Origin: Escherichia phage vB_EcoM_EC001 | Sequence record: MN445185.1 | Strand: one strand, 5' to 3' | DNA: 64,000 nt | Shown: piece by piece, positions 7,125-24,600 of the stretch | Layout of the letters: each line of letters starts with the position of its first letter | How positions within the stretch are numbered: position 1 is the stretch's first letter | Program-made: the position numbers and the translations under genes | The notes under the pieces: generated by a model | The model's database searches: none | What the model saw: only the letters and a program-made list of their open reading frames with translations | What the model was told of the DNA's origin: nothing

Positions 7125-7766
7125 ATGGAAGCACTTAAGTATAAGTTGTTAGAGAAGCCGTGGTTTATTCTCACGGATGATTTCCATTTCGAGTTTACGT
7201 TGCGCAGCCTCTATCGTGAACAGACCGGAATGGATGCGATGGTAGCATTATCAGGTGTACATCCGGATACTCCGTTATGGGTAACGGTGCCGAAAGGATT
7301 TGTAACGGACCTGGCAAGCATTCCAGAAGCGTTACGTCCTATCCTGCATCCGGATGGCCCTTGGGCTGCTGCCGCTTGTGTGCATGATTTGTTTTACCAG
7401 AAACGTTCATCGGTAGGCTTTTACCCTGACACCGTTGAAGGTAATCTATCTCGTGCTTGCGACAAAACATTCGCTGACTTGATGTTCTTACGCATCATGG
7501 AGGCATTAGGCGTTGACACCTTTATTCGTAAGTCCTTCTACCATGCCGTTCACGAGTTTGGTTGGCCGTCCTATGTAGACGATAACTCTAAGGTGGTTTA
7601 TAGCCGGCCGGTAGAAAAGACGTTGTCCTATAATCGCAACTACCTGTTCTTTAGAACGTCGCGTACGTTAGCGATTCCTGAACACGAACGTGTTGACATC
7701 ACTAATGGGCAACCGGTAAACGTGCAGTATTTGAATATCAAACGTGCGTTCCTGACTGCCCCTTAA
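7125..7766 (+). CDS. Hypothetical protein
   Basis: 213 aa ORF with RBS GAGG before ATG; no motif recognised with confidence. Confidence 0.5.
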   Translation: MEALKYKLLEKPWFILTDDFHFEFTLRSLYREQTGMDAMVALSGVHPDTPLWVTVPKGFVTDLASIPEALRPILHPDGPWAAAACVHDLFYQKRSSVGFYPDTVEGNLSRACDKTFADLMFLRIMEALGVDTFIRKSFYHAVHEFGWPSYVDDNSKVVYSRPVEKTLSYNRNYLFFRTSRTLAIPEHERVDITNGQPVNVQYLNIKRAFLTAP

Positions 7767-7775
7767 GGAGAGAAA

Positions 7776-8291
7776 ATGTTTCATCCGAATCCTGCCAACT
7801 TCGCGTTAAAAGAGTTGATGCCGCAGGAGTACATCGCGAAATACGGTGAAGGTGCTATTCGTTTCCTTAATCCGTTACTGCTAATCTCGCTCCAACAGAT
7901 TCGTAATCGTTTTGGGCGGATGGTGATTTTAACCAGTTCCCAGCAACAGCGTAGTCTGCGTACCCTGCAGTTCTTTATTAATCAAGAGAAACCAAAGGGT
8001 GGAGATTGGCAAACTCGTGCAAACAAACTGTACGCCGAATCAGGCAGTATGCATAAATTCGGTAATGCGTTTGATGCAACAATGCTCGATACTCCGTTGC
8101 AGAAAGTGCACGATTATATTGCCGCGAACCCTGACGAGTTTCCATTTATTCACTTTATCGAGTGCGATATTACCTGGCTACATGTTGACGTACGCAACCA
8201 ACCTGATATCACCTTCTGGTCACCAACACGTGGTACCGTTAAAGTGGTAAAACAACAACCCATCGATTGGAGCAAGCTAGTTAAAATCTAA
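7776..8291 (+). CDS. Peptidase M15-family peptidoglycan hydrolase (T5-endolysin-like L-alanyl-D-glutamate peptidase)
   Basis: RBS AAGGAG; zinc-ligand motifs H-x6-D (SMHKFGNAFD) and downstream LHVDV closely resemble the T5 endolysin/VanY pattern (HITGDAID ... HVEL). Confidence 0.65.
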   Translation: MFHPNPANFALKELMPQEYIAKYGEGAIRFLNPLLLISLQQIRNRFGRMVILTSSQQQRSLRTLQFFINQEKPKGGDWQTRANKLYAESGSMHKFGNAFDATMLDTPLQKVHDYIAANPDEFPFIHFIECDITWLHVDVRNQPDITFWSPTRGTVKVVKQQPIDWSKLVKI

Positions 8292-8370
8292 GCCACTTTA
8301 ATCAAAAGTAATATCATTTATCATTTGATACGTTTAATGCGCTTAGAGAGCGTTACAGAGCGTTTTAGAG

Positions 8371-8430
8371 GGTAAATAAAGCCCTTACCCACTCCCCTTA
8401 CGGGAGTGGGTAAGCACTATTTATTTTCTT
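8371..8430. terminator. Bidirectional intrinsic terminator between convergent genes
   Basis: 13-bp stem CTTACCCACTCCC / GGGAGTGGGTAAG (8384-8396, 8402-8414), A-rich upstream and T-rich downstream. Confidence 0.7.
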
Positions 8431-8908
8431 CTAACGGAACAATCGTAACCGGGGTAGGAACTTCGTCAATAAAGCCGCCGCTGCAGCGAAAGAACGTCAT
8501 CCCTTTACCTTCCCCGGTATGCGGGTTCACATCCGAAAAAGAGTAAGTGGGGCCATCGTTTACGGTTTTATTAATACGGTAATAACGCTCACCTGTGGTG
8601 GTGTTAACATTCCCGTCGATTTTGCCAATTGTATCTTTAAACATCATCGGTGACTCAAGTTTGCCACCGTCCCACGTTGCTACCCAGTTTGCACCCACAT
8701 CCATTACTGTTACTGACCGCGGCATCATTTGTAGGTTGTCCAGTACCGGACGGTAGTCTATAAACTTCTCCTGTGTCCCTGTGCATGTATAAATCACCAA
8801 GTCGCGATTCTTTACCGGTGTGCTGCTAAATTGTCCGATGTTGCTTGGTGACTGGACGCAACCGGTCAACAGGCTTATAAACGCGAATACGATAAATAGA
8901 CGTTTCAT
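8417..8908 (-). CDS. Lipoprotein (signal peptide with lipobox LTGC)
   Basis: N-terminus MKRLFIVFAFISLLTGC; isolated minus-strand gene between a bidirectional terminator and a divergent intergenic region. Confidence 0.65.
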   Translation of the reverse strand: MKRLFIVFAFISLLTGCVQSPSNIGQFSSTPVKNRDLVIYTCTGTQEKFIDYRPVLDNLQMMPRSVTVMDVGANWVATWDGGKLESPMMFKDTIGKIDGNVNTTTGERYYRINKTVNDGPTYSFSDVNPHTGEGKGMTFFRCSGGFIDEVPTPVTIVPLEENK

Positions 8909-9032
8909 AAGGTATCCTTTCAGTGGTAAAAACTTTCTCGTTTAACAGCCAACTTTACTGTCATATTAAGCCCACTATGTATTTTTTAGAATGATTTAGT
9001 ATGCACCACAAACCTACTATAAGGAAACAACC

Positions 9033-9581
9033 ATGGCAGTCATCTCTGCAAAAGACCAACTCGTCGCGCTGTTTAATGCCGCAAACAGCGGACTGCCTAG
9101 TCCGTTAACTGCTGCTGACGTTACATTCGGCGCTGTTGCTGACTATTCACCAGCTGATTCTGGAGACACTCGCAACTCCAAACTCACCATCACCGCCACC
9201 GCGGAATCCGCTAACTTTACTGGCGAGAAAGAGCTGCATTATACCCGCCTCAATTTATCGGACTTCATCGGTGCGAAAGCAGTGACCGCTGACCAGGCAG
9301 AATGGGATACCGATGAAGAAGTGCTTGCTTTTGTCAACGCAGAACTATTTGGCGACGGTGAAACGGAAGATCCGTTTGCGTTGTCTGAACTCACCATTTC
9401 ACGCGAAGACGGCAGCAGTGGTGAGAAAGTCATCACTGTTATGGTGAAAGAAGGCCACATTAAATTCCAACCTGTCAGCCTTGGAGTTTATACTGTAACG
9501 CAGCCAATCGTTAAAACTGACCTGAGCACCACCAACGGTGAACTGGGCGGATTCGGCGGCGAAGGTCACGCTGGCATGTAA
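9033..9581 (+). CDS. Hypothetical protein
   Basis: RBS AAGGAA; C-terminal TTNGELGGF motif resembles the C-terminus of the 1..634 product. Confidence 0.5.
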   Translation: MAVISAKDQLVALFNAANSGLPSPLTAADVTFGAVADYSPADSGDTRNSKLTITATAESANFTGEKELHYTRLNLSDFIGAKAVTADQAEWDTDEEVLAFVNAELFGDGETEDPFALSELTISREDGSSGEKVITVMVKEGHIKFQPVSLGVYTVTQPIVKTDLSTTNGELGGFGGEGHAGM

Positions 9582-9610
9582 CAGAGCAATTAGTAGTTTC
9601 TAAGAAATAA

Positions 9611-9657
9611 ATAAAAGGTACCTACCTCCCTTCGGGGAGGTAGGGCCTTTATTTTCT
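9611..9657. terminator. Bidirectional intrinsic terminator (end of minus-strand operon and of 9033..9581)
   Basis: CCTACCTCCC-TTCG-GGGAGGTAGG hairpin flanked by A-run and T-run. Confidence 0.7.
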
Positions 9658-9661
9658 TTGC

Positions 9662-10333
9662 TTACATGCCGAGTGATTCGGACAATGTTTTTAATCCAGT
9701 GTAATCGCGCTTTTCAGCTAACTCACGGATTTGGCGTTTGTTATCTGCCATTGCTGAGTGCAACACCTGGTCGCGTGCAACAATAGCGGCCAACAACGCT
9801 TTACATTGGTCTACTGTAAACGGACTGTGCTTCGTATTCAGCGTATCGAGCCAGTATTCTGGTGCGGTATCTGCCTGAATGTATTGACCGAGGATGGTAC
9901 GCGACGATTCATCGGCTTGAAAGTGACTACCTTCAAACTCGATATAACCATGACGCTCATCTTCGTAGCGATGGTCAAGTTCCAACAGCATCTTCTGCAC
10001 GTCTTCGTAAATGTAACGTGCGGTAGATTTCAGATTCCCGCGAATTTCGTCGAGGTCAATCTCCAGCACATTAGCAATAAACTCTTTCGTGCGTTTCAAT
10101 GTGAATTTAGCTTCAATCTCCGACATCTCATACAGCTTCATGCGTGCCAGGGCTTCTTTATCAGACATCCCTTCGATGAGATGATAATGGAGCAGAGCGC
10201 AAAAGCCTGTACGGCCCTGATCCTGCGCACCGATTCGTTCCATGAAATTACCGTGACGATCAATCGGCAAATCACGCTGGAAATAACGGGCGCGGATCTC
10301 TTCGTTCGTTAAGCTTTTGTCAGTAACAGACAT
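9662..10333 (-). CDS. Hypothetical protein (last gene of the minus-strand operon)
   Basis: 223 aa ORF ending just before bidirectional terminator 9611..9657; no recognisable motif. Confidence 0.5.
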   Translation of the reverse strand: MSVTDKSLTNEEIRARYFQRDLPIDRHGNFMERIGAQDQGRTGFCALLHYHLIEGMSDKEALARMKLYEMSEIEAKFTLKRTKEFIANVLEIDLDEIRGNLKSTARYIYEDVQKMLLELDHRYEDERHGYIEFEGSHFQADESSRTILGQYIQADTAPEYWLDTLNTKHSPFTVDQCKALLAAIVARDQVLHSAMADNKRQIRELAEKRDYTGLKTLSESLGM

Positions 10334-10875
10334 TCGTCCTCCTCAATCAGGCCAAGTTCTAACAACAAACCGAAGTCCAGCATCTGGAAGTCCTGATCGA
10401 GGTTACCGGCCCACAACAGAGAAATGTTGTGTTGCTCTTCTTCTTCCAACTGCGGGAGCAGGTGTTCTTCGAAGATTTGACGTTCTGTGTAATAAGCGTC
10501 AACCGGGTTATTGGAGCGTAAGTTACGAATACGCATCCGCGGGAAAGACAAGCCCAAAGCCACTAAACTTTCAGGACTGGCTTCATCGATGGAATGACGT
10601 AGCAGTTCGATTTTGTGGCGTGGGTATGCGAGCAGTCGCTTCTCAAAGCCAGGGTTGCGCTTTTCGATTTCCGCGACAGACTCGTGTCCTTTCTCAACGC
10701 AGTAGACCGGGATCATCACATTCAGCCCGTATTTAATCAACAGGCTTTGGATTTCATCAGTGAAGTCTTCCCCTGCCACAATTGCGTGCACATTGTACAG
10801 CTTGCTTTTGCGCAGGAAGCGATCGACCAAGTGCAGTTTACGCTTCGTAAAATTGTGAATCAGTATTGACTTCAT
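10309..10875 (-). CDS. Hypothetical protein
   Basis: Start moved to the internal ATG (MKSILIHNF...) which has GGAG 7 nt upstream; overlaps the upstream rSAM gene by about 38 nt. Confidence 0.5.
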   Translation of the reverse strand: MKSILIHNFTKRKLHLVDRFLRKSKLYNVHAIVAGEDFTDEIQSLLIKYGLNVMIPVYCVEKGHESVAEIEKRNPGFEKRLLAYPRHKIELLRHSIDEASPESLVALGLSFPRMRIRNLRSNNPVDAYYTERQIFEEHLLPQLEEEEQHNISLLWAGNLDQDFQMLDFGLLLELGLIEEDECLLLTKA

Positions 10876-12166
10876 TCTGGGCTCCGTTTTGTAATTTTTC
10901 TGCTTCGGCACGTTGGCGTACACAACGTGAACAATAGCACATGGATTTATCATGCAAATCTGATGCGCGGGTCGTACCAGTTTTCTGATACCAATATTCC
11001 GCCGCCATCAGTTTCGCAGTAGTCCAACCACACTGACGACGCTCGGCGTGATACGCTTTACGGTCTTCCAGTGTACCTTCACCGTTTTCGTACGATGCTG
11101 CTGCGCAGCTACCGCAACTGTGTTTCATCGGACACCCTAAACAGGTTTCTGGGTAGTTGGTGTACTGCGTTTGAATCTCTTCTAACAGCTTACCACCGTC
11201 CAGGCTCACAAACTCACGACCGACCAGTTCTGCTACAGCAGAGCGGGAAGTTACCGTGGACATGAAACGGTTACAACCGTAAATCTTGCGATCAAAGCCG
11301 AGACAGGTCATGTGCGTCAACGTACCGCAGTACGGTTTCAGGCGTTCTGGGTCGAGACGAACAGAGTCGTCATGTAAGAGTTTGTCACGCCAATCCGGGT
11401 CCCAAGTTGCCATAAAGTTCAGGCCATCCGGGATGATGTGCGTAATCGTGTTACGCGGGTTGGTGTGCAGACCCTTCTCAATCCAGTAGTCCATCACGTC
11501 CATCATCTGGTTCGCGATATCCAACGCCATATGGCGCGGCAGGATATCTTCGTACGTTACATTACCAGAAATGGTACCACCGCCGGACATGTCAATTAAC
11601 GATTTCATGCTGGCGGCATAGTGCGGCAATGTATCGATCGTGAACGTCGCCTTTACGCCCAGCTCAGCGATGCCGACACTCTTCAGATAATTGTAACCGC
11701 GTACCGCAGCTTCGTACGACCCTTCACGCGTCGTGGTAAAGATACGATATTTGTCATGGACTTCAGGTAAACCATCGATGGAGACCCCAATAGACAGTTT
11801 GTCTTTCCAGCGCTCGATAATTTCTTTGTTCAGCGGACGGTCCAGAAGTGTACCGTTCGTGGAGATACTGAACATATACGGGCGATTGTGTTCTGCGCAT
11901 AACTTCTCTGCGGTTTCAAAGGCCGCCAAAAGAAGTTTAGGCTGCATGAACGGCTCACCACCAATGATATCGATGATGACTTCAACGTTCGGGATATCTT
12001 TATCGCGCTCGAAACAAGCGTGGATAAAATCAATCACGTCTGCTACTTTGTTGTTACGAGGATATTTACGCTCGTAGCAGTATTCGCAGTCCAGGTTACA
12101 TGACAGGTTAGTCACAACCTGATACGTGCGTGGTGTGTACTGGATTTGCTGTTCGCTGTTACTCAT
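10838..12166 (-). CDS. Radical SAM enzyme with C-terminal Cys-rich (SPASM/twitch-like) auxiliary cluster domain
   Basis: CNLDCEYC (CxxxCxxC) near the N-terminus and GGEP SAM-binding motif; C-terminal clusters CGTLTHMTC, CLGCPMKHSCGSC (Cx2Cx5Cx2C) and CYCSRC. Start overlaps the upstream gene stop (ATGAGTAA). Confidence 0.8.
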   Translation of the reverse strand: MSNSEQQIQYTPRTYQVVTNLSCNLDCEYCYERKYPRNNKVADVIDFIHACFERDKDIPNVEVIIDIIGGEPFMQPKLLLAAFETAEKLCAEHNRPYMFSISTNGTLLDRPLNKEIIERWKDKLSIGVSIDGLPEVHDKYRIFTTTREGSYEAAVRGYNYLKSVGIAELGVKATFTIDTLPHYAASMKSLIDMSGGGTISGNVTYEDILPRHMALDIANQMMDVMDYWIEKGLHTNPRNTITHIIPDGLNFMATWDPDWRDKLLHDDSVRLDPERLKPYCGTLTHMTCLGFDRKIYGCNRFMSTVTSRSAVAELVGREFVSLDGGKLLEEIQTQYTNYPETCLGCPMKHSCGSCAAASYENGEGTLEDRKAYHAERRQCGWTTAKLMAAEYWYQKTGTTRASDLHDKSMCYCSRCVRQRAEAEKLQNGAQNEVNTDSQFYEA

Positions 12167-13073
12167 TGTTCGCCGCCCGTTTACGCTTAGCAGAAATTAC
12201 ACGGTTGATGTAGTTATACGCATCAACGCCGATAGAACGCGCCAGGCGATTACAGCCGACTTCCAATATCTCTGGGGCGTTCTGAATTTGCTCCTGCGTA
12301 CCGTCGGCGTTAAGCCACAGCACTTCACTGCACGTGTTGCACTCGGTATCGAACATTTTACTGATCGCAAGCCCACACTCAGAATCGTTCTGCATGTTAA
12401 GGCGTTCGATATTGTCGAGTATTTTCCAATACCCGTACATGAAGTTCATGACGTGGTCTGGCGATAACGGTTTCGGCATCATCGCATCAAACAGCAACGA
12501 CATACCACCTGGACGGTAATGATAGATTGCTCGGTGCAGCTCGATGAAATCTTCGTACCAGCGTTTATCGCCTAACTGGTCACGCGTCATCACACCCCAG
12601 GTGTAATAGTTGTCCAGCTCGTACAGCACTTCCAGCGCTTCGTGATTACCACCGTTTACAAAGTTCATAAACGGACGTTCCGACTTCTTGTAGCCGTCAA
12701 TGGACACAAAGATAAGGTCGAACTGTTTCAGCAACGGCAGATGTGATTTACGCATCTTTAAACCGTTGGTGTACATGTGATGACGGAGGTTCGGATGAGA
12801 CTCCTTCAACTCGTTCACGAAGTCTTCAATCTTACGCTGCGCTAACAGCGGCTCACCGCCCGTCCAATGAATCTCACCGATATCCGGATTCTTCTCTAAA
12901 ATCGAGAGAATCTCTTCACGTTGAAACTCACGAGAAGTATCTTCTCTATCCATGTAATAAGCCCCTCCACAGAAGCTACAGTCTAAGTTACACTTAGAAG
13001 TTGCGACAACCGACAGAATTGACGGTTTGTCGTACAGTTCAGACGAGATCCTGGATTCTACTTGATCTGTCAT
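12159..13073 (-). CDS. Radical SAM enzyme (second, shorter)
   Basis: CNLDCSFCGG (CxxxCxxC), GGEP motif, and C-terminal cysteines (ECGLAISKMFDTECNTC...GC) suggesting an auxiliary cluster. Confidence 0.75.
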   Translation of the reverse strand: MTDQVESRISSELYDKPSILSVVATSKCNLDCSFCGGAYYMDREDTSREFQREEILSILEKNPDIGEIHWTGGEPLLAQRKIEDFVNELKESHPNLRHHMYTNGLKMRKSHLPLLKQFDLIFVSIDGYKKSERPFMNFVNGGNHEALEVLYELDNYYTWGVMTRDQLGDKRWYEDFIELHRAIYHYRPGGMSLLFDAMMPKPLSPDHVMNFMYGYWKILDNIERLNMQNDSECGLAISKMFDTECNTCSEVLWLNADGTQEQIQNAPEILEVGCNRLARSIGVDAYNYINRVISAKRKRAANNE

Positions 13074-13094
13074 TGCAGGTTGCTCCAGTATTTT

Positions 13095-13982
13095 TTAAAT
13101 ATAATCAATGGCGAATAAAGGATCTTCGTCTACATTAGCGCCAGGCACCAGTAACATCGGGTCGTGATAGGCAGCTAAAATTTTGTTCAGGTCGGCGTGT
13201 CTTTCGTTCAGACGTTTCAAATCGGCCAACGTTACCGAACGACTACGAATCTCAGAAACAGCTTCTGCTTCTTCTTTCGTTAAATCCACCTTCGTTAAGA
13301 GGAAGCTTACCAGCTTACTCAAATCCGCTTCTGTCGCCGGGTAATCCCCATATCGAGTTTGAACCAGGTGTTGCATCCACGGCTTACGAATACGTTTGGT
13401 GATTTCAAAATCGTCAGTCAGCGCATACCAGACAGAACGCTTTTTATCCCACACGAACTTATAGCTATACGCCATCATGTCCGCTAAACGGGTGATGCCG
13501 AGTTCTTTATATCCCTCGATATCGATGTACGGTTCGGTGTCGAAATACGTTTCCGTATCGGCAGGTACCAGTACAAAGTAGTAAGGGAATGAGCCCAGAT
13601 AGTCCGGACTCCACCAACGGCGCGCCATCGGTTTTGCTTCGAGTTCGTCAAACGGTGTAAACATCAGTTCTAAATCGACACTGTTGTTCAGAATCCCTTC
13701 ACTGAAGAAATACTTACCGTCAACCAACACGCCGCGAGAGTTACCATCGCCGTTAAAGATAACGATGGCCTCTGCAACCATATCACGGATCTTAAACGTA
13801 TTTTCTACGGTGTAGTTCTTCTTGTCGGTCAAGAAGCGACCACGAACCTTTGGCCACTCACCAGGAATCTGTGCAATCAGTCTGACTTTGTCAGCGAGGT
13901 GTGCACGCACCGAATCTGGGGAAGATAGATGCAGCGGGTGGTTGAATGTGGTTTTATACGCAAGATGCAAATCGTTTTTCAT
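13095..13982 (-). CDS. Hypothetical protein between the Cys-rich genes and the rSAM genes
   Basis: 295 aa ORF in operon context; no recognisable motif. Confidence 0.55.
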   Translation of the reverse strand: MKNDLHLAYKTTFNHPLHLSSPDSVRAHLADKVRLIAQIPGEWPKVRGRFLTDKKNYTVENTFKIRDMVAEAIVIFNGDGNSRGVLVDGKYFFSEGILNNSVDLELMFTPFDELEAKPMARRWWSPDYLGSFPYYFVLVPADTETYFDTEPYIDIEGYKELGITRLADMMAYSYKFVWDKKRSVWYALTDDFEITKRIRKPWMQHLVQTRYGDYPATEADLSKLVSFLLTKVDLTKEEAEAVSEIRSRSVTLADLKRLNERHADLNKILAAYHDPMLLVPGANVDEDPLFAIDYI

Positions 13983-14004
13983 TTAATACTCCGAACGTTT
14001 TCTG

Positions 14005-14211
14005 TTATCGATTCCCCGCTCCACGGCTACAGCTTCCGCTGCAGGACCAGCTACACCCACCATTACAATTATAGTGAGAAAGCGGTAAGCCAGCCAGGTT
14101 ATTTGTGGTCGACACGGTGCCCTGGTTAGCGATATAGTTGTTTGCCTGTGCGGTTGTAATGTAACCTTCTGCCGTAACGAGACGGTTTCGAATAGTCTTG
14201 AGACTGATCAC
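14005..14211 (-). CDS. Cys-rich small protein, short paralog (precursor-peptide-like)
   Basis: 68 aa. N-terminal MISLKTIRNRL... resembles the other two; core HYNCNGGCSWSCSGSC. Confidence 0.55.
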   Translation of the reverse strand: MISLKTIRNRLVTAEGYITTAQANNYIANQGTVSTTNNLAGLPLSHYNCNGGCSWSCSGSCSRGAGNR

Positions 14212-14226
14212 ATAAGCCTCCGTCAG

Positions 14227-14631
14227 TTAGGAGTTAGGACCTGAACAACCACCAGAGCACGCACCTGAGCAGTTTGCGGAGCAGGATTTACCACAACCCC
14301 CAGAACAGCTGCCTGTGCACGTGCCGCTACAACCACCAGAGCACGAAGAGCTACAGCCCGTGCAGCTGCTGCTACAGCCCGATACACAGTTTGCGGAACA
14401 AGTCGACCCACAACCACCCGTAGCAGACCCAGTACACCCGCCAGAACAACTCGAGCAACTAAAAGAGCATGTGCCACCACAGTCATAGTGCGAACGGCCT
14501 TGACCTGCGAACAAGTCGGCGTTATTCGTAGCTTTATTGCGAATGTAGTTTTGCACATTCGTGGTGTTCTTTAAAGCGTTTGCATCGATCGTGTTTAATC
14601 GGTTATTCAGTTCTTTTAATCCAATTGCCAT
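14227..14631 (-). CDS. Cys/Ser/Gly-rich protein (precursor-peptide-like, about 20 Cys at C-x3-C periodicity)
   Basis: 134 aa. Conserved N-terminal segment MAIGLKELNNRL...; core DCGGTCSFSCSSCSGGC...CSANCSGACSGGCSG. Confidence 0.65.
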   Translation of the reverse strand: MAIGLKELNNRLNTIDANALKNTTNVQNYIRNKATNNADLFAGQGRSHYDCGGTCSFSCSSCSGGCTGSATGGCGSTCSANCVSGCSSSCTGCSSSCSGGCSGTCTGSCSGGCGKSCSANCSGACSGGCSGPNS

Positions 14632-14641
14632 TTAATCCCCC

Positions 14642-15034
14642 TTAGCGACCTGAACAGCCACCGGAGCAGGCTCCGGAACAATTGGAAGAACAAGAGCCCC
14701 CGCAACCACCTGTGCAGTTACCGGTACAGCTACTACTGCAACCACCAGAACAACCAGAGCAACCAGAACAGTTACCGCCACACGTCGAAGAACAGCTACC
14801 GATACAAGAAGCAGAACAGCTTCCTGAACAGCTCGAACAGCCATGCGAGCAACCGTTAGAGCACGTCCAAGAACATGTCCCGCCGCAATCTAGCTGTGCT
14901 TTCGTCCAACCCCCAAATCGGTCTGCCGCATTATGGGCTTTAGAGGCCACTTGCGCGTCGACGCGGGGGCCTGTCGCCATGTTAGCTTCGACTATCTGGA
15001 CGCGGTTTCTGACGTCTTTAATAGATATCGCCAT
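14642..15034 (-). CDS. Cys/Ser/Gly-rich protein (precursor-peptide-like), paralog of 14227..14631
   Basis: 130 aa. MAISIKDVRNRV... N-terminus; core DCGGTCSWTCSNGCSHGC...CSSNCSGACSGGCSG. RBS AAGGAA upstream. Confidence 0.65.
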   Translation of the reverse strand: MAISIKDVRNRVQIVEANMATGPRVDAQVASKAHNAADRFGGWTKAQLDCGGTCSWTCSNGCSHGCSSCSGSCSASCIGSCSSTCGGNCSGCSGCSGGCSSSCTGNCTGGCGGSCSSNCSGACSGGCSGR

Positions 15035-15040
15035 TACGCT

Positions 15041-15090
15041 TCCTTAAAAAGTAGAACGAGCGGACTATGTCCATAAACATAGTCCGGCTC
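15041..15090 (-). terminator. Hairpin (possible partial terminator/attenuator) between tail-fibre gene and Cys-rich genes
   Basis: CGGACTATG...CATAGTCCG 9-bp stem (15061-15069, 15078-15086); a short T-run follows on the minus strand and overlaps the RBS of 14642..15034. Confidence 0.35.
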
Positions 15091-16349: not shown

Positions 16350-19300
16350 TTAGGTACGGAACATAAGATTGACCTGGATAATATCAGGCTGTTGCCATCC
16401 TCTCTCGTTCACCCAATCGTGCGCAATCGTTAACGTAAGATCATCGCCATCCCACGCCACGATCGGTGGTGGGAATAAACCCTGAGCGCCCGTGGTAACA
16501 ACCGGAATTGCACCCGCCACATCCACAAACGTGTAGCTACGGCTGTTCAAAACAACTGGTGTGCCGTAGGTCTCTCCCCCCAATGGTAAGATTTGAATCT
16601 TACTATCCGAAAGATCGGTGGTGATTGGTAGTCCCCCCGCGTCCGTGAAAAGCCAAGAGCAAATATGCTGGTTGGCCATCTCAAGCGCTGGGGAACTCAA
16701 CACAGCAGCGAAAGTAAACGTACATGGCACGCCTGCGGGCAGAGAATGCTGTTTGTGATACACGGTATGTGGTGTCGGCATTAACACTTCTGGATTTTCA
16801 TCAATGTTAACATCCTTACCTTCCGCCTCGACGTTGTAGAGAAATCTATCTACCGTATCCCATGGGGCGATGTTGACATTAAAGGTCGTTTCTACTCCCG
16901 GTGTACCTGGGACGACGAATTTACTTTGTATCACCACTATCATCATTCCTGAGGTCGGAGAGAAAGCAGGCGTAGGGATACCCACCCACTCCATTCCCAA
17001 CGATGCCGCTTCACCGTTCTCATCGGCCGTTACCGTCGCAATTGTTGTAGGATGTTTCCAAAACGCCCCCGACTTGTTTGCCTGAGTAAACGCCGGCAAA
17101 GTTTTCAAGCCTTCGAAACGTTTGGAGACCATCGGTTTACCGCGACGCTGTGCGTCAGATACGGTATAAAGCAACTGACTATCCAGATAGCCTTTCGTAG
17201 CATCGATCGACAAAGGACCCATCGCTTCTTTACGCAATGGTGCCAGTCTGCCCGTTGCCGCATCCCTTCCCACTTCCACATCATGCTTATTCTCAACCGC
17301 CGCATGTTCCAACAGTTGTTTCACCGCACCCAATCGCTTAGCATGTTCGACGTTAGTCTCGACGACTCGCGACGAGCCCGTTTTAACATACCCGATATAG
17401 AGTTCCGTTTCAGTGTCTGGATGTTGAACCACGTCCATTACGTACTTCGGTGTACCATTTTCTACCTTGGCGTGCAGGTAGAATGTCCGGTTCTGATGGT
17501 TTGTTGGAAATGCTGCGCTGAGGTCAATATACCACGTAGGCAGCTTATAAGTGCTCGAGCCGAAACGCAGGTCAACTTCCTCAGTCACATATACCAGCCA
17601 ACCTTCAGCTGTTTCCACACCAGCAATGACGACCGATTCAGTCGGGCCACTAAAATTAGGAGCCGCGACAAAATCTCTCGACGACGTTGCGATACCACCA
17701 CAATAGACGTAGTCGAGAGATGAGTTGTGTAACATCACTTGATCGCGATGTGCCAGATAAGCTGGACTGACTGGAGTGTGTGACGGTGCCATACGTCCAA
17801 CGCCGTGTGCGGCAGAAGAACGCGTCCAAGTACCATTAGACAGCGTAAGACCAACAGCGTAGTTAAGCGCACCCAAGTCGCCAATCAGGCGCAAGGTTAA
17901 CGTGTGTGGAAGATACAACCCGAACTGCGTACCATCTACCGACACCATGGTAGGTTGTCCCGGCCGGCGTGTTTTTCCTCCCGTTATCTCTCCCAACGTA
18001 GCATAGTTCAAGCCATAGTCGAGGTTGTTATAGAAGTCAAACAATGCCAATATCGCTGCCGGGAATGTTACCTGCCCGTTGCTGATTGTTGGTTTCAGTG
18101 TAAAGTAGTAGATATCCAACACGTTAACGTTGTTCACAGTACGCGTACATGCTACTTGTGCTAACGTGAGCGGTGTGGCCGTACCAATGCCGATGAACCA
18201 AACAGAGAACAGTGCCTTTCCTGCGTTATTTGCGGCAAGGATATATTCCGAAGCATAACCATTCGCAGCGCCTGCCGGTGCTCCGTCGATGATCATCTGC
18301 TTCATCTTATTCCATTCAGCTTGTGACAGCGTCAACCGATCGGCATGAATCGTGAAAGTGCCAGAAACGTTGTGGTAAGGGAATGTTTCTGGCCCTGTGC
18401 AATACCAGCCGTTTAACTCTGTACCAGGCGACGCCGGTGTAACAATGTGGCACATCTGCGACAGATTCTCGTACGTGGTAGAATCCACTACACGACGATT
18501 GTTAGTTGGTCCATACCCCACTTTACCTGAGTAAGTGGTGTTCGGATCAAACTCAACCTCAATTGCCAAACGGGAACGTGGCTGTGACAACCAGATAAGT
18601 CTGGAATTCGCTCCCAGAGTCAGTGGATACGCCATACCCAGCTCGTAGATAGAACCACGACCTTGGTTTAACGTTACCGCACTAAACCTTCTGGCAGTGA
18701 AGTTGTAGTCGCACGACAGGTACTCGTACCAACTCACACCGTCGTCTAACGTGGTAATCGTGACAATTGGCATTAGGTCACGATCGCTGGCATGTCCTTG
18801 CGAAACGATATATTTGTCTTGCGATGTTGCAAAGGTTTGGTTATTAGCTTGACCTTCGCCCCACTTCCGGCTCGGAATCCCAATCTCAGCACCACCGTTA
18901 TAACGAACCGCGGTAAGATCAGCCACAATAGGGAATCGATCAGCCCCTTCCAGCGTTACCGTCATTGAACTGCAATCAACAACAAAGCTTGACACCCATT
19001 GTTTAAAGCTAATCGTCTGCCCTGTGCTGGAGGCAAACCAGACTGTTGGCGTTAAACCAACACGAAAGTTCAGCCCATCAACACCAATCGCGTGATTACA
19101 CTCAGGACCATGTACAAAGTTAGTTGCATTGTTCCACTTCGCTAACGCGTCTGCGTAGATCTGTGTAACTGGTGCTGGGAGCGCATCGGAAGGTGCACGT
19201 TTCTGTCCCTGTCGCAGATAAACGTTTTCACCCGACGTTAATATCCCGCCTGTTAACGCATCCGCCACAAACGTGTTGCTACCACCCGGATTAAGTTCGT

Positions 19301-21533
19301 TGAGTGCGATGCTACGCATACTCACGAAATAGTTACCGGAGGTAAGCACCGTACGCAACAGGTAGACACGTTCATTACAAACAATCAAATCGTCTGTAGA
19401 AGCGTTTGGAGCCCACGGTGCTGTCGTTACTGTGCCCGCACCATTACCGTTCTTGTAATCACCCAACACCACTTTAACAACACGATGATGTTTTGCATGG
19501 TCAATCGTCCCATCGAAGATGACCAGGTAGTACGCACCGTCACTGCCTAAGCAGATCATTGCATCGGTACCGGTAATCACAATAGCAACCAGATTCACCC
19601 CAGGATACGCCGACATTCCAGCGGGTCGATAGCGTACGGACGTCTGCTGCATATTTTCCAGCGTATTGCTTGGCGACACATCAGCATAGGCGTAATAGAT
19701 AGCCCAGTCACCTGGTGGATTCCCGTTAGAACCGTTACGGAGCGAGTAAACCTTACCAGACTCGTAACGCGCCAAACCTTTCTGCCAGGTTTGGTTTTTG
19801 GTGTACCCTTCGTAGTTCCCCTGGACAGGTATAGGCAAGAAGTTATTGTTGCCGTACGATGATCCGCCAACGGTCCATGCTGGCAACAACGTAGCAATCT
19901 TGTCGTTCAGTGTACCGATTTTCTGTTCGAGCAAGAAACCCTGGCGGGCAGTAACCATCTTATCTGTTGTGGTGTCAATAGCGTCCCACAGTTTAGCCAA
20001 ACCTGTAACAGACGTGGATGCGTACGGCACGTTATCGAGATCGGCAATGGTGTGGGTGTGCGTTGAGAGTGCCTTGCCTGATAGCACGGTGCGCAACGCA
20101 TTAGTAACCGGTTTCTCCAGCGGTCCGGTATTGTTCATCTTCTCAATACCGAAATCCGACGCGGTTAAGGTTAAATGCATTTGCCCGTTTTCGTCTAACA
20201 CAAACCCTTTACCATTGACCGTATACGTGTCGTCCACATATCCGTCGAGTTTGTTCTTCAAGTCAGTAACAGCTTTTTGGGAAATCGCTGTGGACGCCGC
20301 GGCGGACGCCGAAAGGTTAGTAATCGCAAACAAGCCCTGCACAGTTGTGGTTGCTGCAGGCAGCTCCGCATTCATGTAAACTTTGTTTGTTTCTTTACCA
20401 GAGCCGTAAATCTTCAACGTGTCGCTGGATTTGAAGTAGGCGTTTGCTGGAAGTATCTTCACCGAGGTCAAGTACATCTTAACCATATCCGGTGTAACGA
20501 GATACACGCCGTTATACACAGGTGCAAGCACACCCGCATCATAATCGCCCCATTTGTCACCTGCTTTACCCGAGTGAACCCAAAGCGTGTTCAGACCAGC
20601 GCTGAACTCCGTAGCGATACCCGGTTCGTTGTTATCCTGATCAGCTTTTAATACCAGCGGTTTTGTCGAGGTGATAATGAACTTCTCACCTTTCATGCTG
20701 ATAACGTGACCGGATGTTGTTTGGAACGTAATCGCGTCGTTATTCAGAACACGCATACGGCCCAGTAAATCACCCAGGGTATTATCCAGAAGCATGTCAA
20801 CGTGTTTTTGTTGGATGCCGCTGGTAGACATTAACGTCACTAACTCTGCCAGGGTACGTCCAAACGCCTTGGTCGCATCTACGGCCTTGCCGAGTACCGG
20901 GAGTGCGCCAATGTCACCGCAGGTGTAACCATGTGCATTTTTAATCAGATGGTGTTGATACATTTCGTCATCAAACACCTGCTTACCGTTCTGATAAATC
21001 AAATCGGTAACTTCGGCAAATGCCTCATCCAGTTCGTGGGCACGTTCTAAAATGCCCAGTCGGATATCTTCCAGCGCCTTTACAATCTCATCGCGAAGGA
21101 TGGCTTCTTCGAGATCTTTTGGCGGATCGATTGGTGAAATGATCGGCGGATATTTCATCAACTCAGACCAATCGCAGTTACGCGGGTCTTTCATATCCGT
21201 CTTAACCAGATACTTGCCGATTTCAGAAGCAGGGATGCGATACTGTCGACCAACCGACAACAACTCGTATTCTAGCTCTGTGGCGTTCAGCAGCATTATG
21301 CTGCCGTATATTGCATCGTTCTCAGCCTCGGCTAATTCCTGGAAGTAATGTCCTAAGAAATAATCAAGACCTTCTATTAACTTGCGTTTGGTTCCGGTTG
21401 TTTTATCGGTAACGGTTAACGTTAACCCGATGCGATAGAACGGTGCTTCGACGGGAATGACCGTCGAATAACGGTTCGGGTAAGTAGCGGTACTGAGGGT
21501 ACCGTTAAACTGCGCCGCATCTTCTCTCGGCAT
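16350..21533 (-). CDS. Very large virion protein (tail fibre/tailspike-like), about 1727 aa
   Basis: Start at MPREDAAQ with AGGAG upstream; N-terminal domain paralogous to those of 21629..25759, 25772..29485 and 15100..16302. Confidence 0.7.
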   Translation of the reverse strand: MPREDAAQFNGTLSTATYPNRYSTVIPVEAPFYRIGLTLTVTDKTTGTKRKLIEGLDYFLGHYFQELAEAENDAIYGSIMLLNATELEYELLSVGRQYRIPASEIGKYLVKTDMKDPRNCDWSELMKYPPIISPIDPPKDLEEAILRDEIVKALEDIRLGILERAHELDEAFAEVTDLIYQNGKQVFDDEMYQHHLIKNAHGYTCGDIGALPVLGKAVDATKAFGRTLAELVTLMSTSGIQQKHVDMLLDNTLGDLLGRMRVLNNDAITFQTTSGHVISMKGEKFIITSTKPLVLKADQDNNEPGIATEFSAGLNTLWVHSGKAGDKWGDYDAGVLAPVYNGVYLVTPDMVKMYLTSVKILPANAYFKSSDTLKIYGSGKETNKVYMNAELPAATTTVQGLFAITNLSASAAASTAISQKAVTDLKNKLDGYVDDTYTVNGKGFVLDENGQMHLTLTASDFGIEKMNNTGPLEKPVTNALRTVLSGKALSTHTHTIADLDNVPYASTSVTGLAKLWDAIDTTTDKMVTARQGFLLEQKIGTLNDKIATLLPAWTVGGSSYGNNNFLPIPVQGNYEGYTKNQTWQKGLARYESGKVYSLRNGSNGNPPGDWAIYYAYADVSPSNTLENMQQTSVRYRPAGMSAYPGVNLVAIVITGTDAMICLGSDGAYYLVIFDGTIDHAKHHRVVKVVLGDYKNGNGAGTVTTAPWAPNASTDDLIVCNERVYLLRTVLTSGNYFVSMRSIALNELNPGGSNTFVADALTGGILTSGENVYLRQGQKRAPSDALPAPVTQIYADALAKWNNATNFVHGPECNHAIGVDGLNFRVGLTPTVWFASSTGQTISFKQWVSSFVVDCSSMTVTLEGADRFPIVADLTAVRYNGGAEIGIPSRKWGEGQANNQTFATSQDKYIVSQGHASDRDLMPIVTITTLDDGVSWYEYLSCDYNFTARRFSAVTLNQGRGSIYELGMAYPLTLGANSRLIWLSQPRSRLAIEVEFDPNTTYSGKVGYGPTNNRRVVDSTTYENLSQMCHIVTPASPGTELNGWYCTGPETFPYHNVSGTFTIHADRLTLSQAEWNKMKQMIIDGAPAGAANGYASEYILAANNAGKALFSVWFIGIGTATPLTLAQVACTRTVNNVNVLDIYYFTLKPTISNGQVTFPAAILALFDFYNNLDYGLNYATLGEITGGKTRRPGQPTMVSVDGTQFGLYLPHTLTLRLIGDLGALNYAVGLTLSNGTWTRSSAAHGVGRMAPSHTPVSPAYLAHRDQVMLHNSSLDYVYCGGIATSSRDFVAAPNFSGPTESVVIAGVETAEGWLVYVTEEVDLRFGSSTYKLPTWYIDLSAAFPTNHQNRTFYLHAKVENGTPKYVMDVVQHPDTETELYIGYVKTGSSRVVETNVEHAKRLGAVKQLLEHAAVENKHDVEVGRDAATGRLAPLRKEAMGPLSIDATKGYLDSQLLYTVSDAQRRGKPMVSKRFEGLKTLPAFTQANKSGAFWKHPTTIATVTADENGEAASLGMEWVGIPTPAFSPTSGMMIVVIQSKFVVPGTPGVETTFNVNIAPWDTVDRFLYNVEAEGKDVNIDENPEVLMPTPHTVYHKQHSLPAGVPCTFTFAAVLSSPALEMANQHICSWLFTDAGGLPITTDLSDSKIQILPLGGETYGTPVVLNSRSYTFVDVAGAIPVVTTGAQGLFPPPIVAWDGDDLTLTIAHDWVNERGWQQPDIIQVNLMFRT

Positions 21534-21567
21534 TGCAAACACTCCTAATCTGTAATAAAACGGAGAC

Positions 21568-21625
21568 CGCCCTCCCAATAACGGAAGGGCGGTTTACCTA
21601 CGGACTACCCGCCCGTAGGCAGTCC
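21568..21625 (-). terminator. Hairpin region between two large minus-strand genes (possible attenuator)
   Basis: ACCGCCCT...AGGGCGGT stem (21568-21575, 21589-21596) followed on the minus strand by CTCCGTTTTATTAC. Confidence 0.4.
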
Positions 21626-21628
21626 GTC

Positions 21629-24600
21629 CTAAGAGGCCCACTCACCCGAGTTGTTGCCTTCGTTTCTACGTTCAGTATCCAACGTTTGTAAAATCCAATC
21701 CCATGTCCTGGTGGGGATGTGGAATGGATTACGCTTCTCAATGAGAATCGTCTCGCCACCCGTGCGAAGTTCCACCGGTGTCGTTTCAGTAATCACGAAC
21801 ATCGGATTACCACTACTACCCACACCGTTAATAGTGAACTTCGCTTGTAGCGGCGGCACAGAACCTTCCGGAGGCACGAACACGATGTGAATTGGCTGCA
21901 TCGGTTTCGTGCGGGCAAGAGTCCCAGATATCTGAACAGCTGTTGTCGATGCACTGAAAGGTATAACATTACCCGGAATTTTCTCACTACCCACGACGAT
22001 ATATCCAGGGTAGTTAGAGAGCATTGTCCCATTTACCGACACAAAACGCTCAGTTTGAGTTGGGCGATAAGCCCGCATAAAGCCGTACTTCCATTCACCA
22101 CCGTTAGACGTATAGTCTGCAGGAGCCGACTCAAGTAGCGGAGCACCACGTTTCTGCAGCCCTTTATAAAACGGCGCTGGGAGTTTACCGTTCGGTGCAA
22201 GTTCCGGATAACCCTCACTTGCAGCAGACATCGTGATGTATTCCGTAACCGGGTGATCAACGTTATCTCCAAATGACGCAAAAGGTACCGTTGTTACTGT
22301 CATCTCCTCGTGGCCGGAAGACTGTCTATCTGGTGTCCTTTCAATATACGACTCAAACAGTGAACGTAAATAATGGAAACGATTTATATCCACATCTGAG
22401 ATGATCGGCTGCATCAAACCGTGGTTAATAGTCACGTTGTCTCCAGTTTCAATACCGGAAACGTGGATGGCTAGCGCCCCACCTTTAAAGTAATCGATCG
22501 CATCAAACGGAATGTCGTATTCCATTTCGTAAACCTGCACCAGCGGATTGGCTATCAACTTAGAAACCATTGAGATGCGCAGTACCTGCGTATCAACAAT
22601 GTATCGATAACGTACAAGCCAACGATCTCCAAGCGGCGCAAGCTCACTATCGGTATGAACCGAAAGAAAATCTAAACACTCGGTAGATTGGCTCGTCAGG
22701 TTTTTAATTACCCTCGGATTTTCAAGCACCTTATTTGTAACACTGCCCTGCGTGGTCGAGATGATGCCTCCAGTTGCTTGGTTATAAGGAGACGTGATGA
22801 AGCCACAATTCAATTCTGGACGATTGCCACTCCATCTCAGTACCCTAGTCTTGCTTTTATCATCTGCAGACGGGGCCATGAAGTTTAATGTGATATCGCG
22901 ATCGCGAACAGTTTGCGCTTCCGACAAATCAACATCGACCACCACAGAACCTTCAAACGTCGCCATCCCTTTTTCTTTCGGGTTGCTTGGTGTAAACCAG
23001 CAGTACGGTGATGCGCTTTCTGTGGAGACAACCGCTCCAACAAACACTAGGCTTGAAATGGTGCTATCAAATTTATAATCGAATAACCCTCGGTCTAATC
23101 GAATATAGTGGTTACCAGAAACTGGACTATTAGGGTACGCATAAAGCCACTGTTTAGGCAACGGATCGACTTTGTTTAGCGGTAACATTTTTGGGTTATC
23201 CGTCAACGACCAGTCGGCATTACTCACTCCGTGTGCCAGACGTGTTTCGAAGTGCCGTTTAAGTTCGGACGCCATGCCAAAATCAAACGTCGTTTCAAAC
23301 TCGTAAGTCGTACCTGCAACCAATCCCGTCTCTGGTACATCAATATGTCCGATATAGCCGCGTTCCAAGTTAATACCTTCCGTGTCCACAATAGGTTCGG
23401 CGCGCGAATATAACGCATCGGTTATCATGTTCACATAGAGGTAATGCCTTAAACCATTCGGCGTCTTAACAAACTCCTGCAGGCGGGCAACTTTGGTGTT
23501 TTTATCCGAGGCCCCAACCGCAAAGTCACCGTCGTAAATTGTGAAACGAATTGCGGCTGCTTTAGCGCTATCGTTACACTCGGCACGGAATGCTAAGCAG
23601 TGTTGCTTCCACCCCTCCTTGACAGTCGCCTCCAGATACCCCGCTTCTGTAATACCCGCACCGATAATTTCACCGTCCAGATAAACAGAAACAGCACCAC
23701 CGCCACGAACCCAAATCCGCAGCTTACCAGAGTCGCAACGAACCCACGTTTTCGCCAAGAGGTTAACGACTGACAAATCACCCATTCCGGTTGTCGTTAA
23801 ACCAATCTGCGCACCGTAGTTCGTTTCCGGGACGGCAACCTCAAACCCACTAAAATCAATACCGGCACCGGTATTAATTACCGCGTTCTGCCACGTTCTT
23901 TCCATACGGTTATCTGGAGAGAACCACTGGAACATCGGTGTGGTTTGCAGGTCTATCGAACCAGATACCGTCCCCTCTTTACGTGCGCCATTTAACAGAT
24001 AGAAATAATTCAAATCCGTTATGGCGAGTGTGGTACGTGCTGACCCCACAGTCCAAGTCTTACCACGCACAGCGGCAAAATCGGTCACGGAATCCTCTTT
24101 CGCGTTTGCTAGCGCAGCTGCAACTACGTCTAAACGTTTTGACAAATCGTTCAGAACGTTCGGGGTAACGCCGCGATTACCCGACAAGCCGTTTAGGTTG
24201 GTAGAATATCGAGCGATACCGGGAACTGTTTGAGAAGCCGTTGGGATCTGTAAATCGGCGAAGTTGTGATGATGGCCTTTATCGCTAAGACCGGTAACTG
24301 CTTCTGCCAACGCATCAGAAAGTGGTTTATCGACGTCAGCTGTGTTATCAGCCAAGTCCAGACCCAAATCCTTTTTCGTTAGCGTTCGGCTACCAGTGTC
24401 CATCGGCTGGTTATTCAGCAGCGTTGTCTTCCTGACGTACGAAGACAGATCACCCTCGTACGGTAAGAGCGAAGCTGGGGTGGCTGCTTGTCCTTTGACT
24501 ACATCGCTCGGCTTATCAGTCAGCGTCACAACGCCGGGTTCAGAGGTCGTGGCGGGTTTGGCTGTAACCTTCCCGGTGACGGGATCGGCTTTTGACCCTT

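Follow-up and report, generated by a model that had tools for sequence, protein, structure and literature searches.

A candidate radical SAM module for the maturation of Cys-repeat tail-fibre domains in SPN3US-like jumbo phages

The closest described relative of the locus reported here is the CXXX-repeat radical S-adenosylmethionine (rSAM) system, a known family defined by bioinformatics, in which a SPASM-type rSAM enzyme (the TIGR04115 maturase) is encoded beside proteins with Cys at every fourth residue (the TIGR04114, TIGR04117 and PF27846, or tSAM_targ_Cxxx_rpt, targets). The locus was found in a 64,000-nt stretch of DNA from Escherichia phage vB_EcoM_EC001 (MN445185.1); this whole stretch is referred to below as the window. 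Situated directly downstream of four tail-fibre-like genes, the locus encodes three small Cys-rich proteins, an orphan protein of 295 aa (p295) and two rSAM enzymes, of 304 and 442 aa. It is related to the CXXX-repeat family but falls below the cut-offs of that family, and it differs in two respects: the phage module always adds a twitch-type rSAM enzyme and a p295-like protein, and it is found in tail-fibre gene clusters, where the repeat is often fused to a fibre protein.

Four other systems bear comparison. The SPASM enzymes CteB (SCIFF/thermocellin; PDB entry 5wgg) and PapB (the ranthipeptide freyrasin) are thioether-type relatives which, like the phage enzyme, are associated with Cys-rich substrates. 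However, the phage enzyme lacks the N-terminal recognition element of CteB (RRE, the recognition element of ribosomally synthesized and post-translationally modified peptides, RiPPs), its cluster motif being reached already at residue 23; the phage repeat has no regular Asp, Glu, Asn or Thr acceptor, in contrast to the CX3D-type substrates of PapB; and the phage substrate comprises approximately 20 repeats, is part of a large structural protein in relatives, and is accompanied by two enzymes rather than one. QhpD is an rSAM/SPASM enzyme that forms Cys thioether links within the gamma subunit of quinohemoprotein amine dehydrogenase, and it provides a precedent for the stapling by an rSAM enzyme of a small Cys-containing subunit that is kept in a larger assembly. 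Its relation to the phage enzyme at the family level is weak, and it differs in making three cross-links, to Asp/Glu, in a subunit of a periplasmic enzyme, with no repeats and no link to viruses. The His-Xaa-Ser system (HxsB, HxsC and the target HxsA) is similar in having a target with a short-period repeat, two rSAM enzymes and an extra protein; in this case, though, the repeat is HxS rather than CXXX, the scores of the phage enzymes are far below the cut-offs, and the system is itself uncharacterized. Finally, the isopeptide 'chainmail' of the HK97 capsid and the iron-binding needle of T4 gp37 represent autocatalytic or metal-mediated reinforcement, which shares the purpose proposed here, the stabilization of an exposed part of the virion that is assembled in a reducing cytoplasm. 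We know of no radical cross-link that is installed by an enzyme in a virion protein.

The data presented below are taken to indicate, with modest confidence, that the locus is a tail-fibre maturation module, i.e. that its rSAM system covalently matures a fibre-associated Cys-repeat domain and does not make a free RiPP. An earlier reading of the window, made from the sequence only, had left two alternatives side by side, a modified peptide made by the phage and a modified component of the virion or its fibres. The second of these is favoured, and the free peptide disfavoured, because fibre proteins of other phages carry this Cys-repeat domain at their C termini, and also because no peptidase, exporter or RRE was found in the operon.

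The window derives from an SPN3US-like jumbo phage. SPN3US and its close relatives (genus Seoulvirus) are 98.7–99 % identical to this region, and SPN3US gp161–gp167 are the counterpart of the locus. The SPASM enzyme was found in 63 records among 50,697 isolated phages, nearly all of them SPN3US-like jumbo phages of Salmonella, Erwinia, Cronobacter, Proteus and E. coli; the weakest matches, at approximately 25 % identity, are unannotated human-faecal 'Bacteriophage sp.' records. In all 18 of the related jumbo-phage loci the Cys-rich genes accompany the rSAM pair and the entire block is syntenic, the SPASM enzyme being 63–100 % identical over these loci. Its gene is the most conserved of the module, with identities of 63–83 % across related loci.

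More distant homologues (32–47 % identity) were found in varied phage backgrounds, always in tail-fibre neighbourhoods. Co-occurrence was judged in every distant context with readable DNA, about ten independent contexts in all, and the Cys-rich genes and rSAM enzymes were found together in each. It is apparent that a four-part core, consisting of a CXXX protein, a p295-like protein, a small rSAM enzyme and a SPASM rSAM enzyme, recurs in myo-, sipho- and podovirus backgrounds. L002, from a Deferribacter abyssi assembly, is a prophage-like region with a gene for a GpJ-type tail protein; it encodes a 302-aa fibre protein with a C-terminal CXXX repeat, a p295-like protein and rSAM enzymes of 263 and 385 aa, and a 40-kb metagenome contig of GpJ-type context (L035) carries the module core with three rSAM genes. 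A 568-aa fibre protein with PF27846 is encoded on a 213-kb phage contig (L006/L007), a 271-aa coiled-coil protein with a CXXX tail on a 140-kb contig (L008), and a 213-aa fibre-like CXXX protein in a T7-like podovirus (L037), together with an rSAM enzyme and the start of a p295-like gene that runs to the contig end. The L003 locus combines Peptidase_S74 fibres with three small CXXX paralogues (one of 60 aa) and with gp167-like and gp162-like genes. A CXXX fibre, a p295-like protein and two rSAM enzymes are joined by a YcaO protein on a 56-kb contig (L039); on a 487-kb phage contig (L038), a Hint domain comes after the CXXX repeat; and an alphaproteobacterial prophage (L034) has a T7-type fibre, an uncalled 79-aa CXXX open reading frame (ORF), a p295-like protein and two rSAM enzymes.

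Fibre-like proteins of 181–568 aa have the CXXX repeat as their C-terminal domain in L002, L006/L007, L008, L035, L037 and L039. The junction motif that stands before the repeat in the window (see below) precedes it in all of the distant contexts except L008, L034 and L039. PF27846 was recorded on the L006/L007 fibre proteins, on P0119 and P0122–P0140, and in the context of P0098. The last of these, a 634-aa protein with two Radical_SAM domains, looks like the small and SPASM enzymes joined in one chain; its neighbours are a CXXX protein of 570 aa and a protein of 221 aa. Judged from these comparisons, the Cys repeat is a domain that ends fibre proteins in many phages and that is encoded as separate small proteins after gp167 in the SPN3US-like phages.

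It is against this background that a classical RiPP pathway has to be weighed. The Cys-rich proteins would then be leader-plus-core precursors, the core would be modified by the rSAM enzymes and the leader removed, and a free peptide (antimicrobial, signalling or host-manipulating) would be released at lysis, independently of the virion. Such a pathway would account for the small size of the proteins (68–134 aa), for their Cys-free N-terminal part of approximately 49 aa and for the conserved motif directly before the core. The SPASM enzyme does resemble RiPP maturases, the CXXX ORF of L034 stands alone with a very short N terminus, and the YcaO of L039 is another RiPP-type enzyme. On the other hand, the operon has no peptidase, transporter or RRE, and the junction motif and repeat together form the C-terminal domain of 181–568-aa fibre proteins in at least six other contexts. 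The module, furthermore, is always within tail-fibre gene clusters, and the number and length of the repeats are conserved, as for a structural element. A free RiPP is therefore considered unlikely.

Some of the distant contexts have features of their own. The 79-aa ORF of the alphaproteobacterial prophage (L034 6016–6253), which directly follows the T7-type tail-fibre gene, is the most peptide-like variant of the substrate. In the 487-kb phage contig, a 307-aa protein (L038 1463–2386) consists of the junction motif and CXXX repeat followed by a Hint/intein-like domain (Hom_end_hint, Vint), which suggests autoprocessing or ligation chemistry at the C terminus of the repeat. The YcaO (581 aa; L039 9982–11727) adjoins the CXXX fibre, p295-like and two rSAM genes, and it could add a further modification (azoline, thioamide) to the Cys/Ser/Thr repeat. 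In an 87-kb contig (L036, genes 7225–12487) a canonical PF27846 protein and an rSAM enzyme are encoded next to genes for Mtd_N fibres and for a glycine-rich ALK_LTK_GRD protein; most genes of that phage contain in-frame stop codons, i.e. stop-codon recoding.

The published proteome of SPN3US bears on the link to the virion. Purified virions contain gp167–gp173, with gp167 a non-head protein (SC/M 1.90), and gp161–gp166 are not among the 86 proteins identified (PMC5694885, Supplementary Table 1). This non-detection fits a role for gp163–165 as assembly or maturation factors. The Cys-rich proteins would have been undetectable in that study: the database searched did not contain them, and trypsin has no cleavage sites in their cores. 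The 81-residue core of the 130-aa protein contains a single charged residue; N-terminal tryptic peptides are VQIVEANMATGPR, VDAQVASK and FGGWTK for this protein, and LNTIDANALK and NTTNVQNYIR for the 134-aa protein.

Both rSAM proteins carry the CxxxCxxC and GGEP motifs that the sequence-only reading had reported, at residues 28 and 72 of the 304-aa protein and at residues 23 (C23/C27/C30) and 69 of the 442-aa protein. In the latter, these are followed by a C-terminal seven-Cys SPASM set (C280, C298, C342, C345, C351, C354 and C379); the SPASM and cluster-motif Cys are invariant or nearly so in 34 homologues, and the Pfam model PF13186 gave no score on this protein. The best families for the 442-aa enzyme are the TIGR04115 CXXX-repeat maturase (125.6 bits) and PapB (113.6 bits), the latter matched over nearly the full length (residues 22–357); lower scores were obtained with HxsB (75.1 bits), anSME (TIGR03942; 57.3 bits) and QhpD (TIGR03906; 55.5 bits). 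Among solved structures, the best relative of the clade profile is CteB (5wgg; E value 2.5e-44) and the second anSME (5e-27). The alignment with CteB begins at CteB residue 91 and covers the rSAM and SPASM regions; the RRE of CteB lies in its first 90 residues.

Two of the three tests that had been proposed as able to refute the sequence-only reading, on enzyme class and on co-occurrence, were run, and the outcome of each was in favour of that reading. The co-occurrence of the Cys-rich genes with the rSAM pair has been described above. As for enzyme class, the 442-aa protein groups with peptide- and protein-modifying SPASM enzymes (TIGR04115, PapB, CteB) and not with QueE, NrdG activase or viperin; these three and MoaA are absent from its top 25 families. 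It is probably, on the strength of these family relations, a cross-linking maturase. Assignment of the enzymes to the nucleotide or cofactor rSAM class was rejected on the basis of the family scores and of the ranking of solved relatives for both. Membership of anSME was rejected as well (57.3 bits against a cut-off of 349, and the repeats lack the sulfatase motif C/S-x-P/A-x-R), as was membership proper of TIGR04115 and PapB, for which the scores are below the cut-offs. Nor does the enzyme pass as a ranthipeptide maturase: in addition to the PapB score, the position after three residues is occupied by the next Cys. Beyond the SPASM domain, at residues 410–415, is an additional CxCxxC motif (MCYCSRC); a comparable Cys cluster, CCCQQCNC, is present in the L003 enzyme and absent from the shorter prophage enzymes.

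The 304-aa enzyme also has a C-terminal Cys set, and in this respect an earlier claim needs amendment: the SPASM-like cluster that had been ascribed to one of the two enzymes is indeed found in the 442-aa protein, but a conserved three-Cys set is present in the smaller one too. In its family (16 homologues) C28/C32/C35, GGE, C245 and C274 are invariant and C248 is nearly so. An hhalign comparison with the SPASM family gave a probability of 99.2 %, and in it the C-terminal Cys match those of the first half of the SPASM domain. This places the enzyme in the twitch type, with an rSAM core and a truncated SPASM Cys set that is predicted from the sequence to hold a single auxiliary cluster, and it is a truncated paralogue of the 442-aa enzyme. 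The best PDB relatives of the family profile are CteB (5.3e-18) and SkfB (2.2e-15), with MoaA and viperin somewhat lower. Matches of the 304-aa protein to viperin (44.9 bits; cut-off 180), MoaA (43.2; 284), QueE (40.1; 260) and NrdG (39.3; 131) are confined to the N-terminal core, and it scores 45 bits against HxsC. In the GenBank and RefSeq records of SPN3US, gp164 is annotated as a 264-aa protein (L001 14560–15354) that begins at Met41 of the 304-aa ORF and thus lacks the CxxxCxxC motif (C28, C32, C35). Since the longer N terminus is kept in all orthologues, the annotated start is almost certainly wrong.

The putative substrates have a highly regular composition, well beyond what chance would give. 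Protein A (130 aa) consists of a 49-aa helical N-terminal part and junction motif, followed by a C-S-G-x repeat core of 81 residues with 21 Cys, of which 17 spacings are of four residues and 3 of three. Across the family, 626 of the 750 Cys–Cys spacings are of four residues, 112 of three and 12 of eight, and the consensus of the repeat is C-S-G-[GST]. An alignment of 29 sequences has 20 invariant Cys columns, with variation among G, S, T, A and N at the positions in between; the number of repeats and the length are conserved. The junction motif is N-A-x-x-L-G-G-Q-x-x-x-Y-Y-x-C-x(2,3)-C-S-W-x-C. The only family matched by these proteins with E<0.01 is TIGR04114, at 18.9, 17.1 and 13.7 bits for the three window proteins, all of which are under the cut-off of 20; no match to PF27846 was obtained for them in a Pfam scan. 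The features of TIGR04114/PF27846-type targets are present, namely tandem Cys at every fourth residue and a SPASM rSAM enzyme encoded nearby, the Cys-rich genes being situated 2–3 genes upstream of the SPASM gene in the same operon.

All three Cys-rich genes had been described as paralogues with a leader-plus-core architecture. The 68-aa paralogue C does share the N-terminal part and junction motif of the 130- and 134-aa proteins, but it has just four Cys. A trio of two long paralogues and one short is present in all 18 related loci and in L003. A short third paralogue, with 2–4 Cys, is located at approximately 6950–7170 in L020–L026 and at 10607–10789 in L003, as well as in the window (Table 1); it could serve as a cap, act as a regulator or supply the third chain of a heterotrimer. 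The conservation of the trio suggests, speculatively, that it may form a heterotrimer.

The annotation of these genes is at odds with the above. In the GenBank and RefSeq records of SPN3US the 130- and 68-aa ORFs are unannotated and the 134-aa gene is overlain by a wrong-frame ORF of 111 aa, gp166 (equivalent to window 14223–14558, minus strand), and in Erwinia phage pEa_SNUABM_29 opposite-strand ORFs have been called at the Cys-rich genes. Annotated ORFs in the wrong frame or on the opposite strand cover Cys-repeat genes at L005 5882–6154 and 6389–6601. The exact 134-aa sequence has no match in a collection of 5.8 billion protein clusters, in which the identical SPASM enzyme is present on approximately 600 contigs. 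Gene callers have a systematic blind spot for Cys/Ser/Gly repeats, which they and curators miss or call in the wrong frame.

These annotations, and the fact that several frames hold long open ORFs, could be held to mean that the Cys-rich ORFs are compositional artefacts of a GC-rich repeat and that the annotated alternative-frame or opposite-strand ORFs are the real genes. The pattern of substitutions speaks otherwise. For the three paralogue groups, the numbers at codon positions 1, 2 and 3 are 6073/4496/11771, 6038/4788/12250 and 948/683/2535, a third-position excess of 2- to 3.7-fold in the Cys frame in all three groups, which indicates that this frame is under purifying selection; the alternative ORFs were rejected as true genes on these counts. 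The three ORFs stay in frame in the 18 related loci, their genes are tightly spaced and preceded by Shine–Dalgarno sequences, and the 20 invariant Cys columns, the homology to the CXXX tails of fibre proteins in distant phages and the matches to phrog_6085 (Table 1) are also contrary to an artefact. By reason of the in-frame conservation, the third-position excess, the Shine–Dalgarno sites and the invariant Cys columns, the Cys-rich ORFs are judged to be real genes, and the artefact explanation is most improbable.

A model of the 130-aa protein made with AlphaFold2 had a mean confidence (pLDDT) of 42, and of approximately 33 in the core, i.e. the monomeric unmodified core was given no fold. 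This low confidence is compatible with a need for modification or assembly in order to fold, although it does not discriminate. It is also compatible with a further alternative, in which the periodic Cys hold metal ions or Fe–S clusters along the axis of a trimeric fibre tip, while the rSAM enzymes act on another fibre protein or make few changes. The needle of T4 gp37, with its His-coordinated iron ions, offers an analogy, and the location of the domain at the C-terminal end of fibre proteins, with periodic residues of ligand type separated by small residues, speaks for such a tip. Two rSAM enzymes and p295, however, would not be needed for a metal site, and yet they co-occur with the repeat in all contexts examined; moreover, the nearest characterized enzymes act on the Cys thiols of peptides. 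A metal-binding tip is thus regarded as distinctly unlikely.

Genes for members of the p295 family, identified with a hidden Markov model, adjoin rSAM genes in L002, L003, L008, L034 and L035. The family comprises 78 clusters among 1.84 billion representatives, and when sampled from the p295 side the module was recovered in two of two cases, in each of which the gene is between or beside two rSAM genes, with a CXXX protein. By its distribution, p295 is a module-specific accessory protein, and a role as scaffold, chaperone or substrate-recognition partner is proposed. It had been suggested that an RRE might be detected in p295 or in neighbouring proteins. Contrary to this expectation, the operon yielded no RRE domain; the rSAM enzymes begin directly at the cluster motif without the N-terminal PqqD-like domain of CteB-like enzymes, and the confident structure model of p295 had no PqqD-like or other structural relative. 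No leader peptidase or exporter family was found among the nine operon proteins with Pfam, NCBIfam and PHROGs; host enzymes are possible.

The mechanism proposed for the fibre maturation module is as follows. The small proteins would be fibre-associated polypeptides with a helical N-terminal part, a junction motif and a (C-S-G-x)n repeat. Late in infection the repeat would be modified in the cytoplasm by the full SPASM and the twitch-type enzymes, with the assistance of p295, which probably replaces the missing RRE as the partner that holds the substrate. By analogy with CteB, PapB and SkfB, the most likely chemistry is serial thioether cross-linking of Cys (sactionine- or ranthionine-type), with approximately one link per CXXX unit. 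An unstructured Cys/Ser/Gly stretch would in this way be converted to a covalently stapled rod or knot, resistant to reduction and proteases, and the product would become a distal part of the fibre, probably mounted on the coiled-coil protein gp167. In each of the 18 related loci the Cys-rich genes are directly preceded by a gp167-like gene, a homologue adjoins the module in L003, and the protein is a candidate docking partner for the Cys-rich proteins.

Several points weigh against this interpretation. The case is wholly one of homology and gene context. The curated cut-offs were not reached, the 442-aa enzyme scoring 125.6 bits against 350 for TIGR04115 and 113.6 against 340 for PapB (NF047865), and even the best TIGR04115 E value among 34 clade members, 8e-63, corresponds to a score under the cut-off. 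As all of the family scores are below their cut-offs, the phage enzymes form a clade of their own, sister to TIGR04115. The chemistry could therefore be different, e.g. Cys oxidation, C–C or other cross-links, or epimerization, and the repeat does lack the Asp/Glu/Asn acceptors used by characterized ranthipeptide enzymes. For p295, whose fold has no match, the role given is guessed from co-occurrence. The L034 protein, which stands alone at 79 aa with a 14-residue N terminus and no junction motif, resembles a peptide precursor. Finally, there is no report of the Cys-rich proteins in virions, an absence that is uninformative, given the annotation used in the published searches. Such probability as is left beyond the readings set out here belongs to other chemistries or roles.

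The features of the locus are listed in Table 1. The whole block is on the minus strand, and its ORFs, together with the four fibre-like genes upstream, were located as the sequence-only reading had described them; the bidirectional terminator at the end of the operon was likewise found, and the two genes of the rSAM pair, described there as translationally coupled, overlap by 8 nt (12159–12166). Ribosome-binding sites before the Cys-rich genes are AAGGAAG, AAGGGGGA and GACGGAGG. For the gp162-like protein, the ATG at 10875 is the start used in the SPN3US annotation and in the orthologues. A scan for sigma-70 promoters yielded 2 against 8.2 expected, a result that is uninformative; the SPN3US-like phages use their own RNA polymerases.

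Table 1. Features of the Cys-repeat/rSAM locus and of the adjoining fibre-like genes. Positions are those of the window.
Feature	Position	Strand	Evidence and remarks
Fibre-like gene	25772–29485	−	ORF, upstream of Cys-rich genes
Fibre-like gene	21629–25759	−	ORF, upstream of Cys-rich genes
Fibre-like gene	16350–21578	−	ORF, upstream of Cys-rich genes
gp167-like coiled-coil fibre protein, 412 aa	15100–16338	−	ORF; coiled-coil and tail-fibre PHROG matches
Cys-repeat protein A, 130 aa	14642–15034	−	ORF; phrog_6085, 1.2e-40
Cys-repeat protein B, 134 aa, 20 Cys, paralogue of A	14227–14631	−	ORF; phrog_6085, 3e-41
Short paralogue C, 68 aa, GTG start	14005–14211	−	ORF; phrog_6085, 2.7e-24
p295, 295 aa (SPN3US gp165)	13095–13982	−	ORF; orphan protein
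Small twitch-type rSAM enzyme, 304 aa (SPN3US gp164)	12159–13073	−	PF04055, 58.8 bits
SPASM rSAM enzyme, 442 aa (SPN3US gp163)	10838–12166	−	Top family TIGR04115, 125.6 bits
gp162-like protein, 188 aa from ATG at 10875 (ORF of 214 aa, to 10953)	10309–10875	−	phrog_7988
gp161-like DUF4376 protein, 223 aa, last gene of operon	9662–10333	−	PF14301, 38.1 bits
Bidirectional intrinsic terminator closing the operon	9621–9644	Both	10-bp stem with 7 GC pairs; T-runs on either strand

The last two genes of the operon are also syntenic in 18 of 18 related loci. Besides PF14301 (DUF4376), the gp161-like protein matches phrog_8169 and, weakly, the 'tail protein' phrog_2837; it has no relative in the PDB. 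A 177-aa homologue of gp162 follows the SPASM rSAM gene in L003, and the gene is absent from the other distant contexts. Confinement to the SPN3US-like lineage (apart from gp162 in L003) places both, by their distribution, outside the universal core. Beyond the terminator, a 163-aa ORF with a lipoprotein-type signal (MKRLFIVFAFISLLTGC) at 8417–8908 (minus strand) corresponds to SPN3US gp159, and it is a lone minus-strand gene amid plus-strand genes.

The rSAM genes have carried the label 'putative radical SAM superfamily proteins' ever since the genome record of SPN3US. Among the open-access papers searched, none was found that characterizes the CXXX-repeat rSAM family, that concerns SPN3US gp163–166 or mentions these phages' Cys-rich genes, or that connects tail fibres with rSAM enzymes, and there is a realistic chance that the present locus represents the first rSAM modification of a virion protein. 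A bolder proposal is put forward tentatively, at somewhat less than an even chance: that the rSAM enzymes install serial covalent cross-links in a Cys-every-fourth domain at the tail-fibre tip, as the first enzyme-catalysed radical modification of a structural protein of a virus; that the four genes form an ancient mobile cassette of myo-, sipho- and podoviruses; and that the CXXX-target family is at heart a phage-fibre domain.

The practical consequences are several. As the Cys-repeat genes have been missed or called in the wrong frame, proteomics has never looked for their products. The interpretation is directly testable in SPN3US, a genetic model for which amber mutants exist and mass spectra of virions have been published. 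Covalently stapled Cys/Ser/Gly rods could be of interest as scaffolds in protein engineering, and they could matter for the stability of therapeutic jumbo phages or for the range of their hosts.

Many unrelated phages have the same kit next to their tail-fibre genes, which suggests that viruses have a hitherto undescribed means of hardening their host-recognition fibres. If the interpretation presented here is correct, it would provide a biological context for the uncharacterized CXXX-repeat rSAM family, and phages would be seen to build their host-recognition parts by means of RiPP-type radical chemistry, which would join two so far separate fields, RiPP enzymology and virion assembly.

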